This document shows positions 46,441 to 64,000 of a DNA stretch of 64,000 bases, piece after piece. Location: assembly GCA_965213925.1 (NCBI GenBank), contig OZ243927.1:928001-992000 (forward strand), given 5' to 3'. The notes beneath the pieces were generated by a model that ran no database searches, was not told the origin of the DNA, and saw only the letters and a list, made by a program, of their open reading frames with translations. Each line of letters opens with the position of its first letter. Position 1 is the stretch's first letter. This stretch comes from Trueperaceae bacterium. Lineage in GTDB: Bacteria; Deinococcota; Deinococci; Deinococcales; Trueperaceae. The translations under genes were made by a program, and so were the position numbers.

Positions 46441-48471
46441 ATGACTATGACGAAGACGAGAACCAAAACAAACAAATCAGAGAAGTCGGATTTACCCGAA
46501 AAGCTGCCTAAGAAGTGGTCCCGCGCCGTGATTCTCCGCGTCGACCCCGAGATTGACGGCGGACGCTTTCCCATTAAACGCACCATAGGCGAAGCTGTCA
46601 CCGTAACTTCGAACCTCGTCGGCGACGGTCACGACGTGATGGGCGCGGAACTCGTCTATGGTCCTCAAGGTGGACAAGAAGAGACCGTCCGCATGAGCTT
46701 CGAAGGAAACGATACGTACACGGGCACCTTTCACGTGGGCGACCCTGGCATGTGGACCTACCGCGTGCGGGCGTGGGTGGACGAGTTCGGCACGTGGTTA
46801 GCACTCTTCCGCCGCCGCGTCGAAGGGGGCAGCCCCGAGTGGGAAATAGAGAGCGAGCTTAAAGACGGCGCATCGTTGTTAGAGAAGTGCGCCAAAAAAG
46901 CTAAAGGTGAGGATAAGAAGCGTCTCAAGTCGTATATCAAAGTGTTTGAATCGGGCGATGCTGACGCGGCGTTGCAAGGAGAGGTTAAAGAACTTGCGGC
47001 GAAGTACGACCCCCGCGAGGGAGCTGAAAACGGGCGTACCTTAGAGGTTCACGTCGAGCGCAAGTTGGCGCAGTTCAGCGCGTGGTACGAGTTCTTCCCG
47101 CGTTCGGTGGGCAGACCAGGCGAACACGGCACCTTAGACGACGCGGCGGAGATGCTCGACTATGTCAAAGAGATGCAGTTCGATATCGTCTACTTGCCGC
47201 CGATTTATCCTATTGGCAAAAGCCACCGCAAGGGTAAGAACAACACACCGGAAGCGGGACCCGACGACGTAGGGAGCCCCTGGGCGATTGGCAATGAAGA
47301 CGGCGGGCACAAAACCGTCGAGCCGATGCTGGGCGGCATGAAAGCGTTCGAGCGCTTTATGAAGCGGGCGAAGGCGCTAGATTTAGAGGTCGCTTTAGAC
47401 CTCGCCTACCAGTGCTCGCCCGACCACCCTTACGTCAAAGAGCACCCCGAGTGGTTCCGCCAACGCCCCGACGGTTCAATTCGCTACGCGGAGAACCCGC
47501 CTAAGAAGTATCAGGATATTTACAACGTGGACTTCGAGTGTGAGGAATGGAAGGGATTGTGGCTCGAGCTGCGCAGCGTCGTCGAGTTCTGGGCGGAGCG
47601 CGGCGTGCGCACCTTCCGGGTGGATAACCCCCACACCAAAGCGCTGCCCTTCTGGGAGTGGTGCTTTAGCACCTTACGGGAGAAATACCCCGACCTCATC
47701 TTTTTAGCGGAAGCCTTCACGCGCCCCCATCAGATGTACGCGCTTGCCAAACTCGGCTTTAGCCAGTCTTACACGTACTTCACCTGGCGCTACAACAAGC
47801 GTGACTTCGAGCAGTACTTAGGCGAACTCTTCCAGAGCGAAGTCGTGGACTTTTACCGCCCCTCGTTCTGGCCCAACACGCCCGATATCCTCCCGCCCTA
47901 CTTGCGCACGCGCCCCGTCTTCCAAGCGCGGCTCGTGATGGCGGCGACGATGTCGAGTTCTTATGGGATTTACGGTCCGGTCTTTGAACTCATGGAGAAC
48001 GAGCCGCATCCCGCCCGCGAGGAATACTTGGGTAGCGAGAAGTACGAAATCCGCGACTGGAACCTGGACGACCCCGCCTCGCTCAAACCGCTGATGACTC
48101 GCATCAACGAGATTCGCTATGAGAATCCGGCGCTCCATAACAACCGCTCTTTGAAGTTTCATTACGTGGACAACGACCAACTTCTAGCCTTTTCGAAGCA
48201 GGACGGCGACAACCGCATTTTAGTCGTCATCAACTTCGACGCGAACCACGCGCAGACGGGCTTTGTTCACCTCGATATGGGGGCGTTAGGGCTTTCGGAT
48301 AATGAGGCGTATCACTTAGAGGACCTCATCATCGGTGAGCGCTACACCTGGGAAGGCCCCAGAAACTTCATCCGTTTAGACCCGCATTACTTCCCAGCGC
48401 ACATCCTTAAAATCACGCCGGAGCGCCGCGAGCAGAGTTTTGACTCGTACATGGCGCAGCAGAGTGTGTAG
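46441..48471 (+). CDS. glgE: Alpha-1,4-glucan:maltose-1-phosphate maltosyltransferase
   Basis: WYEFFPRS, RKGKNN, YAENPPKKYQDI, FRVDNPHTK, FLAEAFTRP, PNTPDIL. Confidence 0.95.
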   Translation: MTMTKTRTKTNKSEKSDLPEKLPKKWSRAVILRVDPEIDGGRFPIKRTIGEAVTVTSNLVGDGHDVMGAELVYGPQGGQEETVRMSFEGNDTYTGTFHVGDPGMWTYRVRAWVDEFGTWLALFRRRVEGGSPEWEIESELKDGASLLEKCAKKAKGEDKKRLKSYIKVFESGDADAALQGEVKELAAKYDPREGAENGRTLEVHVERKLAQFSAWYEFFPRSVGRPGEHGTLDDAAEMLDYVKEMQFDIVYLPPIYPIGKSHRKGKNNTPEAGPDDVGSPWAIGNEDGGHKTVEPMLGGMKAFERFMKRAKALDLEVALDLAYQCSPDHPYVKEHPEWFRQRPDGSIRYAENPPKKYQDIYNVDFECEEWKGLWLELRSVVEFWAERGVRTFRVDNPHTKALPFWEWCFSTLREKYPDLIFLAEAFTRPHQMYALAKLGFSQSYTYFTWRYNKRDFEQYLGELFQSEVVDFYRPSFWPNTPDILPPYLRTRPVFQARLVMAATMSSSYGIYGPVFELMENEPHPAREEYLGSEKYEIRDWNLDDPASLKPLMTRINEIRYENPALHNNRSLKFHYVDNDQLLAFSKQDGDNRILVVINFDANHAQTGFVHLDMGALGLSDNEAYHLEDLIIGERYTWEGPRNFIRLDPHYFPAHILKITPERREQSFDSYMAQQSV

Positions 48472-48504
48472 GGGTTGTTGCACTGTTGACTATATACTGA
48501 ACCC

Positions 48505-48648
48505 TGTCATTCTGAACGGAGCGACAGCCCTACGGTAAACCATAGGATAGACTCCGTGAAAGAACCTCTGCTATTGCCTTCTCCTCCCACGGAGATTGCG
48601 AGACGAGACCCCTCGCGGAGTCTATCCTGTAAAGGGCTCGGGGTGACA
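48505..48648. repeat. Long palindromic intergenic repeat (TGTCATTCTGA...GGGTGACA type)
   Basis: Nested IRs TGTCA/TGACA, AGCCCT/AGGGCT and AGGATAGACTCCG/CGGAGTCTATCCT. Confidence 0.75.
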
Positions 48649-48891
48649 TCAGTAAGAAGGTATTGATACTTTGCGGACGGTGCGGTATAGCGTAAGAAAA
48701 TCCACATTGGTACGTGCGCCTTTCCCGATAAGGTGAAGGGCGCATTTGGTTGTGTCGTGTTGTATGTTAAGCAGTTGTGCGTATTGCTCAATATTCCCCC
48801 AATGCTGAGAAAAGTGCAAACTATACGAACGCACTAAAATGTATTTAGATGATTTAGAAGGAATCCTTTACAGAGAGTACAAGTAGAAGAG

Positions 48892-51800
48892 GTGATGATG
48901 GACTCCCAAACGGTAGTGCAACCAAAAACGAAGACGAGCAAGCTCGAGCACGACCCCTTATGGTACAAGGACGCGGTGGTCTACGAGTTGCACGTGCGGT
49001 CCTTTTACGACTCGAGTGGCGACGGCTACGGCGACTTCGAGGGCTTGCGGCAGAAGCTCCCCTACTTAGAGGAGTTGGGCGTTAATACTCTGTGGCTCTT
49101 GCCTTTCTACGACTCCCCCTTGCGCGACGACGGTTACGACATCGCGGACTACAAAGGGATTTTGCCTGTCCACGGTAATTTAGACGATTTCAAGCGCTTC
49201 TTAGACGAAGCCCATGAGCGCGGGATGCGCGTCATCACCGAGCTTGTCTTGAATCACACCTCGGACCAACACCCCTGGTTCCAGGAGGCGCGGCAGCCGA
49301 ACTCGCCTAAGCGCGACTGGTACGTCTGGAGCGAAACGTCCGAGAAGTATAAGGACGTGCGCATCATCTTTACCGATACCGAGCACTCCAACTGGACCTG
49401 GGACCCCGTCGCGGGCGCGTACTATTGGCACCGTTTTTTCAGCCACCAGCCTGACCTCAACTGGGACAACCCCGAAGTCGAAAAGGCGCTCCACGAGGCG
49501 ATGTTTTACTGGCTCGACATGGGCGTGGACGGGCTGCGTTTAGACGCCGTGCCGTATCTCTACGAACGCGAAGGTACCTCGGGTGAGAACCTGCCCGAAA
49601 CCTTGGACGCCATCAAGCGGTTGCGCAAAGTCATCGAAGAGCGTTATGGTCCGGGGCGCATCCTCTTAGCGGAGGCGAACCAGTGGCCCGAGGACACGCT
49701 GCCCTATTTCGGTGATGAGGGCGAAGGCGTGCAAATGGCCTTTAATTTTCCGCTGATGCCTAGAATGTACCTGGCGCTCCGCCGCGAGAACCGCCAGCCG
49801 ATTGTGGAGATGCTCAACCTCACCGAAGACATCCCCGAGGACGCGCAGTGGGCGCTCTTTTTGCGCAACCACGACGAGCTTACTCTAGAAATGGTCACGG
49901 ACGAAGAGCGCGACTACATGTATAACGAGTATGGGATGGACCGGCAGTTCCGCATCAATGTGGGAATCCGCCGCCGTTTAGCGCCGCTACTAGGCAACGA
50001 GCGCCGCCGCATCGAGCTGATGAACGCGCTCGTTTTGTCGCTCAAGGGTAGCCCGATTCTCTACTACGGCGACGAAATCGGCATGGGCGATAACGTTTTC
50101 TTAGGAGACCGTAACGGGGTGCGCACGCCGATGCAGTGGAGCCCGGATCGCAACGCGGGCTTTTCCAAAGCGCCCTTTCACCAGCTCTTCTTGCCCCCCA
50201 TCAACGAAGGCGGCTACGGCTACCAGTTCGTGAACGTCGAGGAGTCGCAGAAGAGTGCACACTCGCTCTATAACTTCACGCGGCGCATCTTGGGCGTTCG
50301 TCATCAACACGCTAAGACCTTCGGACGCGGCGACCAAGAGGTCTTAGAGGTTGAAAATCAGCGGGTCTTTGCCTTTACTCGTCAGTATGAGGGCGAGACC
50401 GTTTTAGTGGTTGCCAACCTCTCGCGCTTCGCGCAAGCGGCGACGCTGCCCTTAGGAGAATTTGCAGGTCACTATCCTGTCGAACTCTTCTCGCAGATGC
50501 CCTTTCCGCAGATCGGTGAGGAGGAGTATCCGCTGGCGCTCGGACCGCACGGCTTCTACTGGTTTGTTCTGCGCAGCGAAGAAGAGGTTGACGCTGTTCT
50601 GCCTGAGCTTACTGAGGTGGAGGAGAAGCTCGAGCGTACCCTTCCTACGATCAAGGTCTCCGGCGGCTTAGAAACGCTGCTCATCGACACGATGGTGCAG
50701 GGCAAGGCGCGGCGTCAGTTAGAGGCGGCGTTGCCCGAATTCTTAGGTATCCAGCGTTGGTTCGGTGCGAAAGAGCGCGGTATCAAGACGGCGCGGCTCG
50801 TGGACGCGGTGCGGTTGCAGCCGCAGGCGTATCTTGCGCTGGTGCGCGTGGAATTTGCGGACGGAGGGATAGGGCGCTACTTCTTACCGCTAACCTCAGT
50901 GCCTGCAACCGACGCGCCTAGACTGATCGAGGAGCACCCCCGCGCTGCTCTAGCGTGGCTGGGCGAGACCACTGGAAAAACCCTCCTCTACGACGCCACC
51001 GCCGACGAAAACTTCTGGCTCGCGCTCTATCAAGCCGCGCGGCGCGAGTGGAAAGGGCGCTCCTTAAAAGGGCTCTACAGCGCCAAGGCGATTAAAGGTT
51101 CGCAGCTTCCGCAAGTCGATGAGGTGGACGAGGTCCGCATTGCCAGCGTCGAACAGAGTAACTCGTCCGCATTTTTTGACGACTCGGTCTTCGTCAAGCT
51201 CTACCGCAAGTTCGGCGACGAGATGAACCCCGAGGCTGAGATGCTCACCTACCTGACGCAAGCGGGTTTCCCCTTCGTCCCGCAGTTGCGCGGCGACTTG
51301 AAGTTCAAGCGCGGCGAATTAGAGCTGACTCTAGGGATTTTTCAGACGTACCTGCCGGGCGATAGAGACGCTTGGGGCTACGCTCTGGAAGAGGGGCGGC
51401 GCTTTTTGGACCGCGTGGCGGAGACCTCGCCCCCCCAGGGCGCGCTGCCTGAAAGCTTCGACGACGAGGTTCCGGCGTGGCTCGAGGATGCCGCGGGCGA
51501 AACCCTCCAACTCGCCGCCCTCTTGGGCGTACGCACCGCCGAGATGCACGCAACCCTCGCCAAAGCTGAAGCGAGCGCTCTAAAGCCTGAGCCGACGAGT
51601 CGTGAAGAGCTAGCCGAGTTCGTTGCAAGGGTCCGCAATGAAGCCGAGCAAACCCAGCAGCTTCTCAGCGAGCAGGGCAAAGCGTTGGACGAAGGCGCGC
51701 TTAGCGCAGGTTTAGACCGCCTAGACGCCCTCGCCAACACCGAAGCGAATTGGCACAAAGTCCGCATTCACGGCGACTATCACTTGGGTCAAGTGATGCA

Positions 51801-52230
51801 GGCGGGCGGTGAGCTGTTCCTCTTGGACTTCGAAGGTGAACCCGCCCGGACGCTCGCCGAGCGCAGGCAGAAAGATCAAGCGTTGCGCGACGTTGCAGGA
51901 ATGCTCCGCTCGCTTGAATATGCGGGGCTCGTCACCCTAGAGAGCTATCCGGGGCGGGAGCAAAACGGCGACTTGGCACAAGATTTAATACGGTGGGCAG
52001 ACATCCTTATCCGCTGGAGTGAAGCCGTTTTCTTAGAGGCGTATTTCTCCACCGCAGGTGAAGGGGCAATCTTCACGCCCAAAAGTTTAGAGACGCGCGA
52101 CAAGGTGCTCTGGGCGTATCAGCTCGACAAGGTGCTCTACGAAGTGCGCTATGAGTTAGGACACCGACCCGATTGGGTCTGGTTGCCGCTGCGTGGGCTT
52201 AGCAGGTTGCTCGGTACGCAAATGGCGTAA
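48892..52230 (+). CDS. treS: Trehalose synthase-maltokinase fusion (TreS-Mak/Pep2)
   Basis: GH13 motifs RLDAVPYL, AEANQW, FLRNHDELTLE; C-terminal EQSNSS, RIHGDYHLGQV, DFEGEP. Confidence 0.94.
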   Translation: MMMDSQTVVQPKTKTSKLEHDPLWYKDAVVYELHVRSFYDSSGDGYGDFEGLRQKLPYLEELGVNTLWLLPFYDSPLRDDGYDIADYKGILPVHGNLDDFKRFLDEAHERGMRVITELVLNHTSDQHPWFQEARQPNSPKRDWYVWSETSEKYKDVRIIFTDTEHSNWTWDPVAGAYYWHRFFSHQPDLNWDNPEVEKALHEAMFYWLDMGVDGLRLDAVPYLYEREGTSGENLPETLDAIKRLRKVIEERYGPGRILLAEANQWPEDTLPYFGDEGEGVQMAFNFPLMPRMYLALRRENRQPIVEMLNLTEDIPEDAQWALFLRNHDELTLEMVTDEERDYMYNEYGMDRQFRINVGIRRRLAPLLGNERRRIELMNALVLSLKGSPILYYGDEIGMGDNVFLGDRNGVRTPMQWSPDRNAGFSKAPFHQLFLPPINEGGYGYQFVNVEESQKSAHSLYNFTRRILGVRHQHAKTFGRGDQEVLEVENQRVFAFTRQYEGETVLVVANLSRFAQAATLPLGEFAGHYPVELFSQMPFPQIGEEEYPLALGPHGFYWFVLRSEEEVDAVLPELTEVEEKLERTLPTIKVSGGLETLLIDTMVQGKARRQLEAALPEFLGIQRWFGAKERGIKTARLVDAVRLQPQAYLALVRVEFADGGIGRYFLPLTSVPATDAPRLIEEHPRAALAWLGETTGKTLLYDATADENFWLALYQAARREWKGRSLKGLYSAKAIKGSQLPQVDEVDEVRIASVEQSNSSAFFDDSVFVKLYRKFGDEMNPEAEMLTYLTQAGFPFVPQLRGDLKFKRGELELTLGIFQTYLPGDRDAWGYALEEGRRFLDRVAETSPPQGALPESFDDEVPAWLEDAAGETLQLAALLGVRTAEMHATLAKAEASALKPEPTSREELAEFVARVRNEAEQTQQLLSEQGKALDEGALSAGLDRLDALANTEANWHKVRIHGDYHLGQVMQAGGELFLLDFEGEPARTLAERRQKDQALRDVAGMLRSLEYAGLVTLESYPGREQNGDLAQDLIRWADILIRWSEAVFLEAYFSTAGEGAIFTPKSLETRDKVLWAYQLDKVLYEVRYELGHRPDWVWLPLRGLSRLLGTQMA

Positions 52231-52257
52231 CTATAGCTGTAGAGCTAAAAGGAGTAG

Positions 52258-52294
52258 AGAAGGACTGAAGTTGGCTTCGACCTCAGTCCTTTTT
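52258..52294 (+). terminator. Intrinsic terminator after treS-mak
   Basis: AAGGACTGA / TCAGTCCTT followed by a T-run. Confidence 0.65.
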
Positions 52295-52314
52295 CAGTGG
52301 GAATTCTCCTGTAA

Positions 52315-52415
52315 TACGAGGTTGCACGGCTTAGTTTGCAAAACTAAGCCGTGCCCATCTGTGATGGTAAGCTCTAACGCCCTCAGCTAGGGTAAGTAAA
52401 CTGTGCAATTTCGTA
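52315..52415. repeat. ~100-bp structured repeat, family B, copy 2
   Basis: Ends TACGAGGTTGCAC / GTGCAATTTCGTA; perfect 14-bp hairpin at 52324-52354. Confidence 0.8.
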
Positions 52416-52444
52416 TAAGCACTGTATTGGCACTGCGTCTTCAC

Positions 52445-52468
52445 GAACAAGGGGTTGCAACCCCTTGC
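52445..52468. repeat. REP-like palindrome
   Basis: GAACAAGGGGTTgcAACCCCTTGC, the reverse complement of 42822-42845 with one mismatch. Confidence 0.7.
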
Positions 52469-52678
52469 CAAAGGGACAGGCTTACTTAGGGCCAACCTAG
52501 TCTTCCCCGAGTAAAAATAGTCCCACCTGAGTAGAACGTTAAGGAATCCTCTAGGGTATGTGAGGGATGAACGTATCACCTCTTACTTTTCCGACCCTAA
52601 GTTTAAGGGTTTGATGAACGCACCTAGACGTCAACGCGCACGGCGAACCTCCGTCCTCTTCGCTATGGTGGAATCAAC

Positions 52679-54331
52679 GTGATCAATATGCTACCTTCAC
52701 CTTCTCAAACACTCACGCAACCGGACTGGTATAAAGACGCCGTTCTGTACGAACTCTACGTGCGAGCCTTCAACGACTCCAACAGGAATGGGCACGGCGA
52801 CCTCTTGGGCGTCGTGGAGAAACTGGATTATCTGGCTGATCTGGGCGTGGACTGCTTGTGGCTGCTGCCTATTCAGCCTTCGCCTCTAAAAGATGACGGC
52901 TATGACGTATCGGACTACTACGGTATCCACCCCGACTACGGCACCTTAGACGACTTCAAAACCCTCATTCGTGAAGCGCACGCGAGGGGGATGAGAGTCA
53001 TTACCGACTTAGTGATGAACCACACCTCTAACCAGCACCCTTGGTTTTTAGAGAGCCGTTCGTCGAAAGATAACCCCAAACGCGACTGGTACGTCTGGAA
53101 CGGCGACGACAAGAAACACCCTGAAACGCGCATCATCTTCTCAGATACCGAGACCTCGAACTGGGCGTACGACGAGCTGACGGGCGAATACTACTGGCAC
53201 CGCTTCTTTACCGACCAGCCCGACCTCAACTACGACAACCCCGAGGTTCGCTCGGAGATGCTCAATGTGATTCGCTTCTGGTTGGAGCTAGGCATCGACG
53301 GCTTCCGCTTAGACGCCATCCCCTACCTCTACGAGCGCGAAGGCACCTTGAACGAGAACCTGCAAGAGACCCATGACTTCTTACAAGAGGTCCGCGCCTT
53401 TGTCGATGACTTCGCGCCGGGGACGCTCCTCTTAGGCGAGGTCAACCAGTGGCCCAACGACACGATTCCCTACTTTGGCGACGGGTGCAACGAGATGAAT
53501 TTGCTCTTCCACTTCCCGGTGATGCCGCGTCTGTTCAAAGCGGTAGCGGAGGAAGACCGGGGCAGCGTGGACTGGATCATGGAGCGCACGCCGCACATCC
53601 CCGACACGTGCGGCTGGGTGGTCTTTTTGCGCAATCACGATGAGCTGACCTTAGAGATGGTCACTCAGGACGAGCGCAAGTTCATGTATGAGACCTACGC
53701 ACCCGAACCGCATATGAAGCTCAACTTAGGGATTCGCCGCCGCTTAGCGCCTTTACTGAACAACGATCCGCGCAAAATCAAGCTGATGAACTCGCTCCTC
53801 ATGACCCTGCCCGGCACGCCGATTCTCTACTACGGCGACGAAATCGGCATGGGCGACGACCTCTCGCTGCCCGACCGCAACGGGGTCCGCACGCCGATGC
53901 AGTGGAGTAACGGGGTGAACGCGGGCTTTAGCAAGGCGAACAAACTCTACGCCCCTGCCATCGACAGAGAGCCGTTCGGCTACAGGTGCGTCAGTGTGAA
54001 CCGGCAAAAGGAGAACCCGCAAAGCCTGCTGTGCTGGACGCAGCGGCTCATCAAAACGCGCAAGCAGCACCCTGCACTCGGGCGCGGTCACTTCGAGATT
54101 TTGAAGACGGAGAACCGGAAAATATTGCCCTTCCATAACGTTCATAAGAACGACATGGTTATCGCTGTGCACAACCTCTCCGCAAAGGCGCAACGCTTCG
54201 AACTCGACCTCTCGAGCTACCAAGACGCACCTCTTAAAGACGCTCTGAGCGGACAAGAGGTTACTCTAGCGGGTGAACGGACGAGGCTCGAGCTGCCCCC
54301 TTACGGTTTCCAGTGGCTCGTACGCAGTTGA
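52679..54331 (+). CDS. treS: Second, stand-alone trehalose synthase (GH13)
   Basis: RLDAIPYL, GEVNQW, FLRNHDELTLE; paralogous to the TreS part of 48892-52230. Confidence 0.88.
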   Translation: MINMLPSPSQTLTQPDWYKDAVLYELYVRAFNDSNRNGHGDLLGVVEKLDYLADLGVDCLWLLPIQPSPLKDDGYDVSDYYGIHPDYGTLDDFKTLIREAHARGMRVITDLVMNHTSNQHPWFLESRSSKDNPKRDWYVWNGDDKKHPETRIIFSDTETSNWAYDELTGEYYWHRFFTDQPDLNYDNPEVRSEMLNVIRFWLELGIDGFRLDAIPYLYEREGTLNENLQETHDFLQEVRAFVDDFAPGTLLLGEVNQWPNDTIPYFGDGCNEMNLLFHFPVMPRLFKAVAEEDRGSVDWIMERTPHIPDTCGWVVFLRNHDELTLEMVTQDERKFMYETYAPEPHMKLNLGIRRRLAPLLNNDPRKIKLMNSLLMTLPGTPILYYGDEIGMGDDLSLPDRNGVRTPMQWSNGVNAGFSKANKLYAPAIDREPFGYRCVSVNRQKENPQSLLCWTQRLIKTRKQHPALGRGHFEILKTENRKILPFHNVHKNDMVIAVHNLSAKAQRFELDLSSYQDAPLKDALSGQEVTLAGERTRLELPPYGFQWLVRS

Positions 54332-55267: not shown

Positions 55268-55855
55268 TCAGCATTCCTCTGGTAGCTCGAGCCCATCCAC
55301 CGGAAACCGCCAACCCGGTAAAGCCGGTTCCGCCTCGGCGACCTCGCTCTGCTTGTAAACAGTTGCGTCCTCTGGATGATCAGCTCTATAAACACGTATA
55401 ATTTTGCTGCTCTCTTCGTCCCCCCGCACATCTACGTCCCAAACGACCTGCGTACCGCAGACAAAATAGTCGGCTCTTTTCGCCGCCATCACCTGCTCTG
55501 CCACTGGACCATAGTCGTTCTCGCTCCACACCTCTACGGCGAAAATCGGTGCGCCTTCATAGAACTTCATGCCGCTTGGTTGACCTAAGTAGTAAGCCGC
55601 GTCAGGGCTGAACGACTTGCGGTGCGGCAAATCCACGAGGAACCCTTTATTGTCGCCTACGGCGCGTCCGCTTCCGGTTTGTTTAGCGTACTCGCGCAGT
55701 GCAACAAAAATCTCGTCGCCAGCGTAACCGGGCGCAACTCCTGTAGGCGGCATTAACACCAGCTTTCCGTTGACGATTTCTGCTTTGGCGTTATCTGGTA
55801 CGCCGTAAAGGTCTTCAACTGTCGCTCCGGGCGCTGAAAACAGAGGGGTTGTCAT
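55268..55855 (-). CDS. Uma2 family PD-(D/E)xK endonuclease-like protein
   Basis: AEIVNGKL, SPDAAY, PIFAVEVWS, KRADYF, PALPGW. Confidence 0.85.
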   Translation of the reverse strand: MTTPLFSAPGATVEDLYGVPDNAKAEIVNGKLVLMPPTGVAPGYAGDEIFVALREYAKQTGSGRAVGDNKGFLVDLPHRKSFSPDAAYYLGQPSGMKFYEGAPIFAVEVWSENDYGPVAEQVMAAKRADYFVCGTQVVWDVDVRGDEESSKIIRVYRADHPEDATVYKQSEVAEAEPALPGWRFPVDGLELPEEC

Positions 55856-56021
55856 GTGGGAAACCTCCACTGTTTTGACTATATCACGGCTTGTATCGTG
55901 ACTTTAGCTGTGTCACTCTTGGTCGTCTGACGTCTCAAGATTATGAACGCAGAAGGAACGGGAAGTGCGATTTGAAGTATTTTATGGCTATCTAACGGCA
56001 CAATTTGGTGTAGCATTTAGG

Positions 56022-56549
56022 TTATTGAAAAAAAATTCCATTTAGAGCTAGTAGGTCAGCCATTGTTGTTATCTTCCAAGCATCTCTATCTTGCTCTAAT
56101 GGAACCATGATCGTAGTTGAACGGTCCCCACCGTAAATGACGTGAGCGACAACGTAAGCCCTTCCTTCGCCGTCGAAGCCGTGCCAGCGTGTAGTGACCT
56201 CGTATTCGGATATACTCGAGCCAAGCTGCTGTAAAAGGTGTAAGTCCCACTCCAAAGCAACAATATAAGGGTCCATTTCTACAATCTCGTCTGGATTCTT
56301 GTCTTGCAGAAAATAAGGAATGTTTTCAATTGCTCCATTTTTCAAGTTGAGGGCTATATTGTTACGTACACTCTCAACATAATCTGAGTGTAGAAGTTTT
56401 ATCATTGGTTCGAACTCGTAGTTAGTAAACGCTTCAAAATATTTTTGAACAACTTGCTCAGGTGAGTCAGTTTCTGACTGAGCGACAACAAAACCTAACG
56501 AGCAGATGAAAAACGCCACAAGGATAAACCTTTTCAGGAAAGGTGCCAT
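56022..56549 (-). CDS. Secreted hypothetical protein (NTF2-like), AT-rich
   Basis: Signal peptide; SPEQVVQKYFEA...WKI pattern; visibly lower GC than flanks. Confidence 0.6.
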   Translation of the reverse strand: MAPFLKRFILVAFFICSLGFVVAQSETDSPEQVVQKYFEAFTNYEFEPMIKLLHSDYVESVRNNIALNLKNGAIENIPYFLQDKNPDEIVEMDPYIVALEWDLHLLQQLGSSISEYEVTTRWHGFDGEGRAYVVAHVIYGGDRSTTIMVPLEQDRDAWKITTMADLLALNGIFFQ

Positions 56550-56697: not shown

Positions 56698-57525
56698 ATG
56701 ACCCAACCCTTACGTCCTCTTCTCTCATTGCTTGTGCTTTTCGGCTCGCTTATAGGCGTGCTGATAAGTTGCAGCACCGACATCGACACGCCCGGCGAGC
56801 GGCTGCGTATCTTCGAGCAAGACTTAGACCCCGCCTTTATCGGCGAATCCTATAGCGACAACATCGAGGTGATCGGCGGGCTTGCGCCTTTTAACTTCGA
56901 GGTGAGTAGAGGGGAGCTGCCGCCGGGTTTAGAGCTGCAGGAGGCGACCTTGCGCGGCACGCCGACCGAGGCGGGCACGTTCACCTTTACGGTGAGTATC
57001 TCGGACGCTAACCTTTCAGAAACCTTTCAGGAGTACACCTTAGAGGTCACCGTGCCGCCGCCCGCGACGCTCAACCTCAACGTTCCCGAAACGGAGATGA
57101 GCGAGGTCTTCACGGTTCCTGTGAGCCTCAGCGACGCCCGCGAACTCCGCGCCTTTCGTACGCTCCTCACCTGGGACGTGGAGCGCTTCGAGTTGGTTCC
57201 GAACAGCGTGCGCGCGACGAGAGGGCGCGTGGCGCTTTTACAAAACGCCGAAGAGGGCGAACTCAACGTCGATGTGGCATTTTTGGGTGATCCGTTTTCA
57301 GGTGGCGGGCGCATCTTTACGTTTGATTTGCGACCCCTCGAGCCCAGCACCGTAGAGGTCACCGCTCGCACCGAGTTCCGCGCGGACGACGAGGACTTCG
57401 CCTTTACCGAGGTGAGCGCAGGGATAGCGCCGGATACGTCTGACGACCTTGACGAAGGCGATCCTACGGGCGGCGCAGGCGGCGACCCGGCGGATGACGG
57501 AGAGGACGACGGAGAGGATGACTGA
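56698..57525 (+). CDS. Lipoprotein with putative Ig domain, cohesin-like domain and acidic tail
   Basis: Lipobox LISC; GGLAPF...GELPPGLEL...LRGTPT..GTFTFTV; then FTVPVSL..A....LTWD..RFEL....GEL.V.......SGGGRIFTFDL. Confidence 0.75.
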   Translation: MTQPLRPLLSLLVLFGSLIGVLISCSTDIDTPGERLRIFEQDLDPAFIGESYSDNIEVIGGLAPFNFEVSRGELPPGLELQEATLRGTPTEAGTFTFTVSISDANLSETFQEYTLEVTVPPPATLNLNVPETEMSEVFTVPVSLSDARELRAFRTLLTWDVERFELVPNSVRATRGRVALLQNAEEGELNVDVAFLGDPFSGGGRIFTFDLRPLEPSTVEVTARTEFRADDEDFAFTEVSAGIAPDTSDDLDEGDPTGGAGGDPADDGEDDGEDD

Positions 57526-57526
57526 G

Positions 57527-58093
57527 ATGACAACCTTACTTAAACGCGCGACCAGACCTCGTGACGGTTGGCGCAGCTCGAGGGGCTATATCCTCGCCCT
57601 ATTTCTCCTTATGGGCGCGGCCTGCGCGTTCGCCACGACCTACGCCGAACTGACTCTGGACGAACTCTTTACGCGCGCCGAGACCGCGTTTTACGGCGCG
57701 GTTTCTGAGGTGAACGTCGAGGAGCGGGACGGCGAGCCCTACACGGTCGTTACGTTCGATGTGACGCGCGCGCTGGAGGGCGAACCGGGGGAGACCCTCG
57801 AGCTTGCCTTTTTGGGCGGCACGCTCGAGGGCGGGCGCTCGCTCGACGTGACGGGGATGCCGCAGTTCAGTCTAGGCGATGAGGTCATCGTGTTCGCGTA
57901 CGACACGCCCTATTACTCGCCCATCGTGGGCTTTTCGCAGGGGCTGTGGCGTCTGTCCGAGGAGGGCTTTCGCGACGAGGCGGGGCGCGTGCTCAGCCTG
58001 AGCGAAGCGGGCGACGTGACCCGCGACGGCGCGGGCGCAGGCACGGACGCGCTTCTGAACGCGCTCGTGGCGCGCTTCGAGGAACCGCAATGA
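57527..58093 (+). CDS. Secreted partner protein of the type found beside matrixin-like proteases
   Basis: Signal peptide ending AFA-TT; LDEL...A....G.V, YT.VTF.V, GGTL.G....V.GMPQF..GDEV.VF, GFSQG. Confidence 0.7.
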   Translation: MTTLLKRATRPRDGWRSSRGYILALFLLMGAACAFATTYAELTLDELFTRAETAFYGAVSEVNVEERDGEPYTVVTFDVTRALEGEPGETLELAFLGGTLEGGRSLDVTGMPQFSLGDEVIVFAYDTPYYSPIVGFSQGLWRLSEEGFRDEAGRVLSLSEAGDVTRDGAGAGTDALLNALVARFEEPQ

Positions 58094-58974
58094 ACACGCT
58101 CGCTGATAGACTCATCAATGTCGTGCGGCGCATCCTGATCGGGACGGCGCTACTAGGTGGTCTGGTGCTCGCGATAGACTACCGCGTGGACGGCGAGGGC
58201 GGGCCGCCTAACCTAGCCGACGCGGTGGCGGCGGCCTTCTCGACGTGGCGCGGGGTCGAAGGCGCGAACGTCGAGGCGAACGTCACTGAAGACGCCCCCA
58301 ACCTCATCGAGTACGGCGGCGGCGACGACTTCGGTCCGGAGACCTACTCGCTGACGGTGCAGCGCACCGAGGACGACGTGCGCAGCGTGAGTGTGCGGCT
58401 CAACCCGACGCTCGAGCCGCAAAGCGACCCTCGCCGCCGCGCCCTCTTGCACGAGACGGGTGTGCTGCTCGGTCTCAACACGCTGAGCGGCGACGCTGCA
58501 GGCGTCATGAACCCCGTGTTTCCCGCGGGCGCAGCCGCCAACCTGAGCGAAGCGGACCGGACGGCCATCGCCGAACTCGAGAGCTTCGCGAGCGAAGACG
58601 TCAACCGCGACGGCGTCGTGGACTTTTACGACCTCGCCGAGCTTGCCGCCTCGTTCGGCCAGAGCGGCGTCGGCGTACTCGGCGACATCAACGCCGACGG
58701 AATTGTGGACGACGCAGATGTGGCGCGTCTACGCGAGGCGTACGTTTTCGGTGCGCCCGCCGAAGTCGACCCCAACAGCGGCGACGAAACGGGCGGCGCG
58801 GTAGATGACGAAGACGAATTCGACGAAGATTTTGGTGAAGATGAACCCGCCGAATTTGGCGACGTCACAGGCGGCTCCGAGACGGGCGGCGCGTTCGAGA
58901 GTGACCTAGACAGCGCTGAGGAAGGTCCGGGTGGGGAGATAGAAGAAACGGGTGGTAGCAGCGGCAGCGAATGA
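58090..58974 (+). CDS. Degenerate matrixin-like protein with dockerin-like domain and acidic tail
   Basis: Signal peptide; AAFSTW, LLHETGVLLGL, VMNP Met-turn; DVNRDGVVDFYD and DINADGIVDDAD Ca-loop-helix pair. ATGA-coupled to the upstream gene. Confidence 0.75.
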   Translation: MNTLADRLINVVRRILIGTALLGGLVLAIDYRVDGEGGPPNLADAVAAAFSTWRGVEGANVEANVTEDAPNLIEYGGGDDFGPETYSLTVQRTEDDVRSVSVRLNPTLEPQSDPRRRALLHETGVLLGLNTLSGDAAGVMNPVFPAGAAANLSEADRTAIAELESFASEDVNRDGVVDFYDLAELAASFGQSGVGVLGDINADGIVDDADVARLREAYVFGAPAEVDPNSGDETGGAVDDEDEFDEDFGEDEPAEFGDVTGGSETGGAFESDLDSAEEGPGGEIEETGGSSGSE

Positions 58975-59021
58975 CCACTCGCCTTGACGCTGCGATACCA
59001 AAACGACGGACGTTGGCGGGC

Positions 59022-59309
59022 TCAGAGTAGCCCGTCGATTTTTTTGGCGAGCGTTACGTCCCTCTTGCTCAGCGCGCCTATATCGTGTGAGATGAGGTCA
59101 ATTTTAACCTCTTTGTAGACGTTGAACATCTCGGGGTGATGGTTCATCTTTTCGGCGTGCAGCGCAACGCGGGTCATGAAGCCGAACGCTTCTACAAAAT
59201 TTTTAAACGTAAAGGTGCGGCTGAGCTTGCCCTCTTTAAGCTGCCAGCTCGAGAGGTCACCAAGCGCCGCTCGCACCTCTTCCTCACTGAGTGCATCTTT
59301 CGCCATCAC
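59022..59309 (-). CDS. phhB: Pterin-4-alpha-carbinolamine dehydratase
   Basis: [26 protein letters not shown]. Confidence 0.9.
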
Positions 59310-59418: not shown

Positions 59419-60684
59419 TTAGCTCTGCCAAGCGAGCATAAGCGCCGCCGTCCACGCGAACGTGTGCCCGCCCAACCCCTCGCCCGTCTTAGGGTCGTAA
59501 TACTCAAAAATCCCCGTCTGCTCCGCGAGCGCGAGGCTGTCCTCCTTAATCTTCTGCGCCCATACCAAGTACCCCTGCGCGATGAGACCCTGATAGAGCA
59601 TCCAGTTGACGTTGATCCAGACCGGACCGCGCCAGTAGCGCTTCGGTTCAAAAGCTGGGTCGAGCGGGCTCGTGCTCGGCACGAGGTAGCGCACCTCGCC
59701 GTTCCAGGTCTCTAAGACGTGCAGCAGCTTCCGCGTCTGCGCCTCCGTCGCCACGCCCGCATAAACCGGCATCAATCCCTCGAACGTGCGCACGCCGCTA
59801 CGCTCGCCGCTGACGAGGTCTTGCGAGAAGAAAAAAGCCTCCTCTTCGTCCCATAGCGACCCCAAGGCGGGTTGACTCAGGTCCAACCAATCTTCGATTT
59901 CACCCGTTTCCAAGTCAAAGCGTTCGGCTAGCTCGAGCAAATCGCGGTTCGCTCGGTGCAAAATGGCGTTAAAGGCGACATCGACGACCTTAAAAGGCGA
60001 CGCCTCGTAGATTTTTTCAGGCTCGTAGTCGTGCTCGCGGAAGAGGTTGACGAGTCCGATATAGCGCTCGTACTCCTCGCTACTGGGGCGCTGCTCGGCG
60101 TTCACATGCCCTGTATCGCGGCGCTCATCCGGCAAGGACGCACGCGGCGCACGCGCGAGTGCCTCGTCCCACAAGGGGCTGTTGTCCATCCCGCTCTCCC
60201 AGGGGTGCAAGAGAGCGACGAGCCCGGTGCCGTCGGGGTCGCGCGCTTCGTAGAGCCAGCGGTGAAACTCGAGAATCTTAGGAACGAGCGTCTCGGCTTT
60301 TTCTTTCGCCAACGCCTCGTCTTTCGCGTTCTGGACGAGTTCCCGCACCACCGTCGCGAGAATCGGCGGCTGCGTGATGCCGCTGCTCGCGACCTTACCC
60401 GAGCGCGACGCCGGGACGCCCCACACGCCAGGACCGGGAAAATAGCCCTCGTTCTCCTGGTGAAAGACGATGTGCGGGACCATGCCGTCTTGCCACTGCG
60501 CGGAGAGAAGCGTCTCAAGCTCGAGCCACGCCCGCTTCTCGTCAAAGGTCGCCCAGCCGAGCGCGATAAAGCCCGCGTCCCAGTTCCACTGGTAGGGGTA
60601 GAGCCCCGGTGCAGGGATGGTGTAGGAGCCGTGGTCGTTCGCCCGTAGGACCTCTTTGCACCGTCGGGTAAGCTCCGGCTTCAC
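59419..60684 (-). CDS. GH63-like mannosylglycerate/glucosylglycerate hydrolase
   Basis: LYPYQWNWD, HPWESGMDNSP, YWRGPVW, FEYY, FAWTAA. Confidence 0.85.
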   Translation of the reverse strand: MKPELTRRCKEVLRANDHGSYTIPAPGLYPYQWNWDAGFIALGWATFDEKRAWLELETLLSAQWQDGMVPHIVFHQENEGYFPGPGVWGVPASRSGKVASSGITQPPILATVVRELVQNAKDEALAKEKAETLVPKILEFHRWLYEARDPDGTGLVALLHPWESGMDNSPLWDEALARAPRASLPDERRDTGHVNAEQRPSSEEYERYIGLVNLFREHDYEPEKIYEASPFKVVDVAFNAILHRANRDLLELAERFDLETGEIEDWLDLSQPALGSLWDEEEAFFFSQDLVSGERSGVRTFEGLMPVYAGVATEAQTRKLLHVLETWNGEVRYLVPSTSPLDPAFEPKRYWRGPVWINVNWMLYQGLIAQGYLVWAQKIKEDSLALAEQTGIFEYYDPKTGEGLGGHTFAWTAALMLAWQS

Positions 60685-61964
60685 TCCTTGACCCCGCCCG
60701 CCGTGAGCCCGCCGACCAAGTACTTCTCAAACCAGAAGAAGAGCACCATAATGGGCACGGTGACGACGACTGCGCCTGCCATCAAAAATTGACGCGGGAC
60801 CTCTTGCGAATTCAAAGCGACCATCCCTCTCGAGAGCGTAAAAATTTCCGGCGAGTCCAGAAACATAAAGGCGAACAGAAACTCGTTCCAGGCGATCATG
60901 AAGACGTAGAGCCCGACCGAAGCCAGCGCGGGAACACTCAAAGGTAGCGTGATGCGCCAGATGACCCCTAAGCGCGTGCAGCCGTCGATCATGCCCGCCT
61001 CCTCCAAGTCTTTCGGCAGCGTCTGAAAGTAACTCCTGAGCATATAGAGCGCCACAGGAATCGTCGTCGCGGGGTAGACGACCAGAAGACCGGGGAGCGT
61101 GTCGCGCAACCCAACTTGCGTGAAGACCGCATAGAGTGGCACCACCAGCACGATAGCCGGGAACATGTAGATGAGCAAAATCGAGCGCGAGAGCGTGTCG
61201 CGCCCCGGAAAGCGCAGCCGCGTCACGGCGTACGCGCCTAAAACCGCCAACAAGAGCGTGATGATCACGGTGGCGACGGCGACCATCGTGCTGTTTAAGA
61301 TATAGCGGGCGAAGTCGAAGCGGACCAAGACCTCGCGGTAGCCGACCAGTAGGTTGCTGAGTCCTTGCGAAAAGTCGATGCTCAAATCGGTGGGGTCTTG
61401 CAAAAAGGTCGAGCGGGACTTGAGGCTCGAGGCGACCATGAAGTAGAAGGGAAAGACGACAATCGCGATAAAGAAGATGAAGCCGAAGCCGCGCAGGAGG
61501 CGCAGCGTGATGGTCTCGTAGACGTTCGGGCCCGCTTCAAAGAGGTTGAGGTCGCGCAAGCCGTAGCGGGTCAAAAAGGCGGCGGCGCAGAAGGCGAGGG
61601 GCGCACCGACGACGCCCCAGAGGATGCTGACCTCGCCGAAGCCGAGCGGTCTCAAACCCGTAAACACGAGCCAGAGCACCCCGACGCCCGCGCCCACCGC
61701 GAGCGCGAACCAAAGCGGCGTCGTCTGTTTTCGGTTCTCCTCTTTTCGCATTGCGCTCAGGGCGAGCCCGATGACGAGACCGCTTAGAAGCGCCCAGCCG
61801 AGCGGCGTGCTGACCTCTAAGCGGCTAAAAATCACCGCGAAAAACGCCCACAGCAGCACAGCGGTCAGCGTCGAAAGTGCGCCCATCAGCGCGGCGATGG
61901 CGAAGCCCGTTACGGAAGGGAAGTTGCGTGACGAGCTTTGGGTACGGGTTGCTTGTGCCATCAC
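60681..61964 (-). CDS. Carbohydrate ABC permease (MalG-like) with an extra N-terminal TM region
   Basis: LEEAGMIDG EAA motif, WNEFLFA, LVGGLTAGGVKE. Confidence 0.9.
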   Translation of the reverse strand: MMAQATRTQSSSRNFPSVTGFAIAALMGALSTLTAVLLWAFFAVIFSRLEVSTPLGWALLSGLVIGLALSAMRKEENRKQTTPLWFALAVGAGVGVLWLVFTGLRPLGFGEVSILWGVVGAPLAFCAAAFLTRYGLRDLNLFEAGPNVYETITLRLLRGFGFIFFIAIVVFPFYFMVASSLKSRSTFLQDPTDLSIDFSQGLSNLLVGYREVLVRFDFARYILNSTMVAVATVIITLLLAVLGAYAVTRLRFPGRDTLSRSILLIYMFPAIVLVVPLYAVFTQVGLRDTLPGLLVVYPATTIPVALYMLRSYFQTLPKDLEEAGMIDGCTRLGVIWRITLPLSVPALASVGLYVFMIAWNEFLFAFMFLDSPEIFTLSRGMVALNSQEVPRQFLMAGAVVVTVPIMVLFFWFEKYLVGGLTAGGVKE

Positions 61965-63223
61965 TCACCCTCCGGGGTATAGCGGAAATAGATGACTAGA
62001 AAAATTGCCAGGATGAAAAAGAGCACCACCGCCGTCGCCGCGCCTGCGCCGATGTCTGAGCGTCCAAAGGCGTTGTCGTAGACCTGCACGGGCAGCGTCT
62101 CTGTCCCGGCTGCGCCGCCGGTCAAGAGGAACACGTCGTCGAACTTGTTAAAGGTCCAGATGAAGCGCAGCAAGAAGAGCGTCGCGACGATGCCCACGAG
62201 CTGCGGCAGGGTGATGTAGCGGAACTTCTGGAACGCGCCCGCACCGTCCACCTCGGCGGATTCGTAAAGCGCGTCGGGGATGGCTTGAAAGCGGGCCAGC
62301 ACGAAGAGGAAGGCGAAGGGAAAGTAACGCCACGCTTCGAAGGCGATGACGGTGGAAAGTGCAAGCGGGAAGTTAAACGAGAGCCCTAGCAAGCTCACCT
62401 CGAAGCTGCGCTGGCTTAAAAAGGAGATGGGCTCGCGCATGAGGCCAAACTCTAAACCCAGCGCGTTCAAGCTGCCGCTAAAGGGGTCTAAAAAGAAGGT
62501 CCAGGTGAAGGCGACGGCGATCACCGGCGCGACGTAAGGAAAGAGGAAGAGCCCGCGCAAAAAGCCCTTGCCGAAGAACTCGCCCTGCAAGAGCTGCGCG
62601 GCGAAGACGCCCAAGAGAATCGAGCCGCCCGTACCGAAGAGCGTGTATGCGAGCGTCGTCCAGAGCACGGGCCAGAACTCGCGCCCGGAGAGGACGAAGC
62701 GGAAGTTTTGCAGCGTGAAGTTGAAGTTCGTCAACACGTTGCTGGCGTCGCCGCTCAGGGTCGGCTGGGTCGGGGCACGCTGGTTGATATCGTCGGCGAA
62801 GAAGGCTTCGCTCGTCTCGAAGGAGAGCGCCACGTTCTCGCTGGAGCCGCCCTCCCACTCGCCGAAGTCGCAGGTTAGGGAGCGCCCGTCCACGCTGCAC
62901 GCTTCGGGCAACTCCGCCGGCGTCAACCCGTCAGCGAGTTGCGCCTCTAGCGTCACGTTGCGAATGGTTATGTCGGGGCTGCTGTTGCGCATCAAATAGC
63001 GCACTTCCAGGGTGTCGCCGGGGTTTTCGGCGGGCACTGCCCGCTCGCGTACAACAGGTACGGGCGGACGTAAGTCGCCCAGTTCGACGTTCTTGAAGCT
63101 GATCCAGAAGTTCGCCAGCACCGGAAAGATAACCACGGCGAAGACGATCAAAAAGGTCGGCGCGAGCATCCAGAAGGCGAGCCGCGCCTCGCGTTGGCTG
63201 AGACTTTTCTGTTGCTGCTCCAT
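61961..63223 (-). CDS. Carbohydrate ABC permease (MalF-like) with an inserted extracytoplasmic Ig-like domain
   Basis: LYESAEVDGA EAA motif, FRYITLP; ~100-aa insert after the first TM helix. Confidence 0.9.
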   Translation of the reverse strand: MEQQQKSLSQREARLAFWMLAPTFLIVFAVVIFPVLANFWISFKNVELGDLRPPVPVVRERAVPAENPGDTLEVRYLMRNSSPDITIRNVTLEAQLADGLTPAELPEACSVDGRSLTCDFGEWEGGSSENVALSFETSEAFFADDINQRAPTQPTLSGDASNVLTNFNFTLQNFRFVLSGREFWPVLWTTLAYTLFGTGGSILLGVFAAQLLQGEFFGKGFLRGLFLFPYVAPVIAVAFTWTFFLDPFSGSLNALGLEFGLMREPISFLSQRSFEVSLLGLSFNFPLALSTVIAFEAWRYFPFAFLFVLARFQAIPDALYESAEVDGAGAFQKFRYITLPQLVGIVATLFLLRFIWTFNKFDDVFLLTGGAAGTETLPVQVYDNAFGRSDIGAGAATAVVLFFILAIFLVIYFRYTPEGE

Positions 63224-63373
63224 CCTCGAGTCTCCTCAGTGCGGTTTAGGGTGCTGCGCTCTAGGCTATTAGGTAAAAACAAAAGCTAAGCACTCGTACA
63301 TAGTTGAGTTGAACAGAAGCTTTTGGCGAATCTCAGCGCTGCTCACGAACCATAGAGAACGTTTTGGCGTGGC

Positions 63374-63392
63374 AGGGGAGAGTTTCTCCCCT
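63374..63392 (-). terminator. Hairpin after the substrate-binding protein gene (stabiliser or attenuator)
   Basis: AGGGGAGA-gtt-TCTCCCCT. Confidence 0.4.
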
Positions 63393-63434
63393 ACGAAGCA
63401 GCGCTGCTTGCGTCAAGCTTTGGAGTCGTTAAAG

Positions 63435-64000
63435 CTAATTCTGCTGCAGCGCCTGCACCTCTTCCTGAATCCTCGAGACCGCCTCCTCCACCGAGAGTTC
63501 ACCATCGGTGAACTGACGGACGATCTCCGCCATGATGCGCGTGTCGTAGAGCTGCGAGGTCAATTCGCCGTAGCCCTGGCTGTAGCCCCAGCGCGTGCCC
63601 GTCTCCAAGCCTTCGACGAGGTCTTGAATCGTCTCTTGAGAGTAGAACTCGCTTAGCGGTGCGCGGCGGTCCACGCCGACCTCTAAGTTCGACCAGGCGT
63701 TGATGAACTGCTCGGGGTTCTCCTGAGTGCCGCGCCGCTGCGGGAACTTACCTTCTGCCGCCATGCCGAGCGTCTGCTCGTACCCTTCCGAAAGGGAATA
63801 CTCCACGAACTGCCGCGCCGCCTCGAAGTCCGCGTCTACAGTGATGCCAAAGTAGCGCACGTCCGTCCAGCCTGCGCCCTCTTCGTTACTCGGACCGGAT
63901 AGGCGAGTGACGAAGCCCGAGTCTTGAGCGAGTTGCGGGCTGGTGGGGTCTTCCACCGCCGTTACGGGCACCTCGTCGCGCAGCCCGGCGAGTTCATCCA
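63435..64000 (-). CDS. Sugar ABC substrate-binding protein, C-terminal part (start beyond the right edge)
   Basis: Open frame to the window edge, upstream of two permeases; ends GELSVEEAVSRIQEE. Confidence 0.8.
   Translation of the reverse strand, partial: DELAGLRDEVPVTAVEDPTSPQLAQDSGFVTRLSGPSNEEGAGWTDVRYFGITVDADFEAARQFVEYSLSEGYEQTLGMAAEGKFPQRRGTQENPEQFINAWSNLEVGVDRRAPLSEFYSQETIQDLVEGLETGTRWGYSQGYGELTSQLYDTRIMAEIVRQFTDGELSVEEAVSRIQEEVQALQQN

Follow-up and report, generated by a model that had tools for sequence, protein, structure and literature searches.

We analysed a 64,000-nucleotide stretch of a Trueperaceae bacterium genome (GenBank assembly GCA_965213925.1, contig OZ243927.1, positions 928,001 to 992,000; hereafter the window), in which three genes on the plus strand encode a predicted lipoprotein scaffold (gene 1, 56698..57525, 275 aa), a secreted protein with a tentatively assigned TIMP/NTR-like OB-fold (gene 2, 57527..58093, 188 aa) and a secreted protein with a matrixin-like domain that appears to be zinc-less, a dockerin and an acidic tail (gene 3, 58090..58974, 294 aa). 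As stated in the original prediction, which was made from the DNA letters, the genes are tightly coupled, with a 1-nucleotide gap between genes 1 and 2 and an ATGA overlap between genes 2 and 3, and the host, then taken for a probable member of Deinococcota, does belong to this phylum. Because the order of genes 1-2-3 is conserved phylum-wide, this arrangement is not a matter of chance. We find that nearly all Deinococcota genomes of our set carry one copy of the locus and that the products of the three genes probably form a complex. The proposed TIMP-like character of gene 2 as partner of a dead protease domain, the likely descent of this pair from an operon of an inhibitor-like gene and an active matrixin, and the near-universality of the locus go beyond the original prediction.

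Gene 1 comprises a lipobox, one Ig domain, a cohesin-like domain and an acidic tail. The lipobox Cys25 (56770-56772), already recognized earlier, is invariant in all 30 aligned homologs. It is followed by an Ig domain of the He_PIG type (56794..57054; Pfam E 1.3e-9) with a conserved D-A-N-L-S hairpin, D103 being kept in 30 and L106 in 27 of the 30 homologs; what had been described as an Ig-like repeat is Ig-like but a single domain. The subsequent beta-sandwich (approximately 57061..57426) had been proposed to be a cohesin, and this proposal held structurally but not at the level of Pfam. Specifically, the AlphaFold model of gene 1, built with the 30-row alignment, has two beta domains at a predicted local distance difference test score (pLDDT) of 89, with values of 95-98 across most of the cohesin-like domain, and the top Foldseek match of the sandwich among solved structures was the Clostridium perfringens cohesin 2vo8 (E 2.9e-7, TM(target) 0.73; root mean square deviation 2.8 over 129 columns), followed by 2jh2 (TM(target) 0.72) and the archaeal non-cellulosomal cohesin 2xdh (0.68). 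Pfam Cohesin (PF00963) had no match in gene 1 at E<=1 and a weak match in one of the 30 homologs (E 0.072). A feature search of the Atlas with residues 120-246 returned Cohesin clusters at 0.92, which we treat as a lead only. We conclude that, as modeled, the second domain of gene 1 has a cohesin fold yet lies below the Pfam Cohesin test. In public records, homologs of gene 1 go by the names 'Ig domain' or 'hypothetical'.

The dockerin of gene 3 (58597..58743) consists of two Ca loop-helix repeats spaced 29 residues apart and passes the Pfam Dockerin_1 (PF00404) cut-off (25.9 versus 22.9 bits), in agreement with the two repeats originally noted. In the search of a gene 3 homolog profile against solved structures, dockerins were the best matches (2y3n_B, E 1.3e-8), followed by MMP-2 (E 5e-4). 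The Asp/Asn residues of the loops are conserved, and the four terminal loop Asp residues are invariant in 43 aligned rows. The repeats are asymmetric, with a hydrophobic first helix: residue 179 is hydrophobic in 42/43 rows while the equivalent position in repeat 2 is mostly polar. The difference between FY and DA at the recognition positions, on which a single binding mode had been based, is present as described; however, FY as a pair is specific to the family, with Y180 present in 30/43 rows, and the general feature is the hydrophobic residue 179. Judged from the sequences, the asymmetry favors a single binding mode. The N-terminal domain of gene 3 (58174..58584) has the fold and homology of a metzincin and lacks the zinc motif of the matrixins (M10A, PF00413), having HETGVLLGLNT (58450-58482) in place of HExxHxxGxxH, with Glu122 kept and the second and third His lost, as expected for the pseudo-metalloprotease that had been proposed. 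Among homologs, Glu122 is retained in 42/43, His121 in 29/43 and Met140 of the Met-turn in 29/43, and none of 35 aligned rows has the intact motif; the Deinococcus-type rows are without all three His and have mostly lost the Met-turn. On this basis, the N-terminal domain of gene 3 is best described as metzincin-derived and without a zinc site.

Gene 2 has no credible Pfam match, and we assign it to the TIMP/NTR-like OB-folds with weak-to-moderate confidence. Its putative OB/NTR-like domain aligns with N-TIMP-3 from residue 1. The predicted mature protein begins with Thr-Thr-Tyr (from 57635; cleavage site placed by eye from the sequence, not by a predictor) and is free of Cys. Membership in the TIMP family requires Cys1; gene 2 has neither this N-terminal Cys nor the disulfides, and Pfam TIMP (I35, PF00965) had no match in a set of 49 members. 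A search with mature gene 2 recovered 2064 cluster representatives at E<=0.001, and these bacterial TIMP-like representatives are mostly unnamed by Pfam.

To determine the distribution of the locus, we used a set of 301 genomes of the phylum, our own genome included. Profiles of gene 1, gene 3 and gene 2 matched 291/301, 290/301 and 215/301 genomes, respectively, nearly always in single copy. Gene 2 was found in 95/102, 109/112 and 10/10 genomes of families f1, f2 and f5 (together 214/224), and its profile had no match in families f3 (0/62) and f4 (0/14; together 0/76), which are Thermus-type; named matches suggest that f2 is the Deinococcus-type and f3 the Thermus/Meiothermus-type family. Synteny was inspected in 40 regions from 39 hand-picked genomes, and because related genomes are not independent, the following numbers describe patterns rather than statistics. 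The order of genes 1-2-3, for which a synteny check had been proposed, is conserved in 31 of the 32 sampled f1, f2 and f5 genomes, in three of which genes 2 and 3 are fused. All seven sampled f3 and f4 genomes have a single gene at the locus. In all 13 Thermus-type loci, the sandwich of gene 1 continues directly into a fused dockerin remnant; this remnant has helix 1, in which the hydrophobic character is kept, and the second loop but no longer the first Ca loop. In several of these fusions (L058, L062, L063, L065, L066), a low-complexity insert of up to ~130 residues separates helix 1 of the remnant from its second Ca loop. In the one lineage with fused genes 2 and 3, the model of the ortholog fusion forms one rigid unit (predicted TM-score 0.90), and genes 2 and 3 are predicted to pack in a fixed pose. 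In genome G167 (L098, L099), gene 1 lies ~195 kb away from genes 2-3, and gene 1 is also apart from them in G169 and G194 of the same genus.

Outside the phylum set, a metagenome scan with eight divergent gene 2 relatives yielded 49 loci, the taxonomy of which is unstated. In 35 of these, an open reading frame with an intact HExxHxxGxxH lies downstream of the gene 2 relative on the same strand; of the remaining 14 loci, 10 run out within 450 bases and two within 730, leaving two true negatives. All six matrixins that were scanned passed the Peptidase_M10 cut-off, a 16-row profile of the metagenome matrixins matched gene 3 (probability 94.9, E 4e-8), and dockerin and cohesin profiles had no match in the 49 loci. 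Because gene 2 relatives are paired with intact matrixins, the ancestral unit was likely an inhibitor-like protein together with an active matrixin, and the gene 2-gene 3 pair likely descends from such an operon. These widespread two-gene operons, in which a secreted TIMP-like protein is paired with an intact matrixin, are, moreover, a candidate bacterial TIMP-MMP system in their own right. Many of the metagenome matrixins (L135-L183) carry a duplicated C-terminal domain that is unnamed and has an FPPRNE-like motif.

Altogether, we think it reasonably likely that this near-universal single-copy Deinococcota locus encodes a 1:1:1 non-catalytic complex of the cell envelope. In our working model, Cys25 of the predicted lipoprotein gene 1 would be the anchor and its Ig domain the stalk, while the cohesin-like domain would hold the Ca-loaded dockerin of gene 3 in one orientation using helix 1 only. 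For the zinc-less protease domain of gene 3, the predicted partner is the TIMP-like gene 2 protein, the mature N-terminal Thr-Thr of which may lie in the dead cleft beside the Glu that has been kept, in the manner of TIMP in MMPs. An ancestral protease-inhibitor pair would have lost catalysis and become clamped to a membrane scaffold. Docking of gene 3 on gene 1 is likely, and the fusion of the dockerin remnant onto the end of gene 1 in Thermus-type genomes provides new, indirect support from sequence comparison. Because Thermus-type genomes drop the head but keep the capped scaffold, the indispensable job probably resides in the Ig-cohesin-dockerin core. For the role of the complex, we would favor, with reserve, a structural one, i.e. 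a Ca-stabilised strut or a binding platform on the membrane. A bolder and, in our opinion, doubtful extension is that the locus is a core envelope machine of the whole phylum built from a domesticated bacterial TIMP-MMP pair, in which the zinc-less protease serves as a permanent receptor of its inhibitor and is clamped to a membrane lipoprotein by a housekeeping cohesin-dockerin bond of the phylum that envelope integrity requires; if so, the intact operons, being widespread, would make up a large system in bacteria that corresponds to TIMP-MMP in animals.

We considered that the three genes might be co-transcribed without a cohesin-dockerin bond, in which case the sandwich would act as a spacer or in carbohydrate binding, with no role for the Ca loops beyond stabilising gene 3. 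The missing Pfam Cohesin match, the small number of invariant surface positions on the sandwich and the unlinked gene 1 in G167 fit this possibility, but cohesins are the top structural matches of the sandwich and the dockerin remnant follows it in all 13 of the Thermus-type loci with the hydrophobic first helix kept and the first Ca loop lost, making it unlikely. Alternatively, gene 2 could be a working inhibitor of own or foreign metzincins that is parked on the dead gene 3 protein and displayed at the membrane as a protective shield. Its tentative TIMP-like fold and conserved N-terminus, the pairing of its relatives with active matrixins and the precedent of the potempins, inhibitory OB-fold lipoproteins whose genes lie upstream of those for the proteases concerned (PMC9890683), are in line with this idea; nevertheless, we regard it as quite unlikely, given that Thermus-type genomes lose gene 2 and the dead domain jointly while the scaffold stays, that a second protease could not engage a gene 2 N-terminus that is already bound, and that an accessory defence gene would rarely be single-copy in 214/224 genomes.

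It appears very unlikely that gene 3 binds zinc through other ligands and works as an unusual but active metalloprotease, with gene 2 as its inhibitor or prodomain: the retention of His121, Glu122 and Met140 in many homologs and a precomputed Peptidase_M10 match in homolog P0015 could be taken to favor this, but the intact zinc motif is absent from all 35 rows and the Deinococcus-type rows lack the three His and mostly the Met-turn. Least probable of all is a scaffold in the manner of a mini-cellulosome, onto which several enzymes with dockerins would be recruited. In its favor, the genome encodes two further large surface lipoproteins with malectin domains and weak matches to cohesin and dockerin; however, each has its own cohesin-like domain immediately before the dockerin, gene 1 has a single cohesin, and the census of dockerins that had been suggested returned gene 3 as the sole match of its dockerin profile, just as the four domain profiles of the locus each find this locus alone. 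Because there is no pool of dockerin clients in the genome, the locus is not a cellulosome-like platform, and a cellulosome was rejected as candidate, with one cohesin-like domain in gene 1 and one dockerin of such type in the genome. Of note, the two lipoproteins belong to a group of three encoded at L007:5631-17641 (G000:C1, ~1195630-1207640); they share an identical N-terminal block, carry the cohesin-like domain and then the dockerin-like pair in one chain, and have malectin, Ig and other domains thereafter.

The best structural matches of the sandwich and the dockerin, i.e. the C. perfringens NagJ/NanJ cohesins and NagH dockerin (2vo8, 2jh2, 2ozn) and the Archaeoglobus fulgidus cohesin (2xdh), are likewise non-cellulosomal one-to-one pairs, but they are on active glycoside hydrolases (according to the entry titles) or sporadic, whereas the present locus is phylum-wide with a dead protease as cargo and the cohesin on a lipoprotein. 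Similarly, cellulosome scaffoldins are surface-anchored cohesins with dockerins on secreted cargo, whereas here there is one cohesin, one client and, as originally predicted for the assembly, no carbohydrate-active domain. The locus resembles the animal TIMP-MMP pair (MEROPS I35 with M10A) in that a putative OB/NTR-like domain stands beside an MMP-like fold which retains the general-base Glu; by comparison, the present locus has no N-terminal Cys, disulfides, Pfam TIMP match or zinc site, its genes are adjacent or fused, and its protease domain bears a dockerin. According to PMC9890683, TIMPs engage MMPs via the N-terminal amino group, and the OB-fold potempins of Tannerella resemble gene 2, for which an OB-fold is tentative, in being partners encoded just upstream of MMP-like (KLIKK) peptidases with a lipoprotein tie to the membrane, but are themselves lipoproteins that inhibit active enzymes by loops, with no cohesin-dockerin clamp described there. 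Listeria Mtz-Tim, as far as covered by the accessible text of PMC8235301, is also an envelope-located pair of a secreted metzincin and a TIMP-like protein from adjacent bacterial genes; Mtz, however, is an active enzyme with the lipoprotein Tim as its substrate, the genes are phage-associated, and no cohesin or dockerin is reported in that text. The likeness of Tim to gene 2 is one of description and not of sequence comparison.

In D. radiodurans, DR_1407 (365 aa) is the sole 'Ig domain-containing protein' in the tables of PMC11219805, and the next genes on its strand are DR_1406 (157 aa) and the corrected DR_1404+1405 (179 aa), which are otherwise hypothetical; DR_1406 was found among the supernatant proteins of a tamB mutant whose envelope peels. 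A 363-aa member is present in the gene 1 cluster of D. radiodurans. Thus, DR_1407-DR_1406-DR_1404+1405 may be the D. radiodurans locus based on names, order and sizes rather than a sequence check. An account of the locus was not found in a literature search judged from result lists and the beginnings of abstracts, excluding subscription papers and bioRxiv supplements and including passages of PMC10828601, PMC10120038, PMC5382914 and PMC6895123. We conclude that the locus is real, phylum-wide and undescribed, with known parts in a combination that we have not found in print. These genes may be mentioned in a survey from 2009 that dealt with cohesins and dockerins outside cellulosomes, or in lists of signature proteins for Deinococcus-Thermus.

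The locus also provides a natural series from an inhibitor-like gene with an active matrixin elsewhere, via a dead pair with a dockerin in most Deinococcota and a fused pair in one lineage, to a Thermus scaffold onto which a dockerin remnant is fused. Most cohesin-dockerin pairs outside cellulosomes occur sporadically and have no explanation so far. Here, a locus of this type is present almost universally, in single copy, in a phylum that offers two models amenable to genetics and has an unusual envelope on which much work has been done, and for this reason the question of what such pairs do becomes testable.

The genes flanking the locus are in opposite orientation or unrelated. A terminator-like hairpin with an 11-pair stem and a T run lies 3' of gene 3 (59012..59039, plus strand) and is a weak call, as five such sites were observed versus 3.2 in shuffles. 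Divergent from gene 1, window positions 55268-56549 contain a Uma2 family gene and a visibly AT-rich gene for a secreted protein of 175 aa that has no match in Pfam. Further upstream (46441-54331) are what we take to be a maltosyltransferase-like gene and two trehalose-synthase-like genes, and downstream, by sequence reading, 59419-63998 contains sugar ABC transporter genes and a glycoside-hydrolase-like gene on the minus strand.
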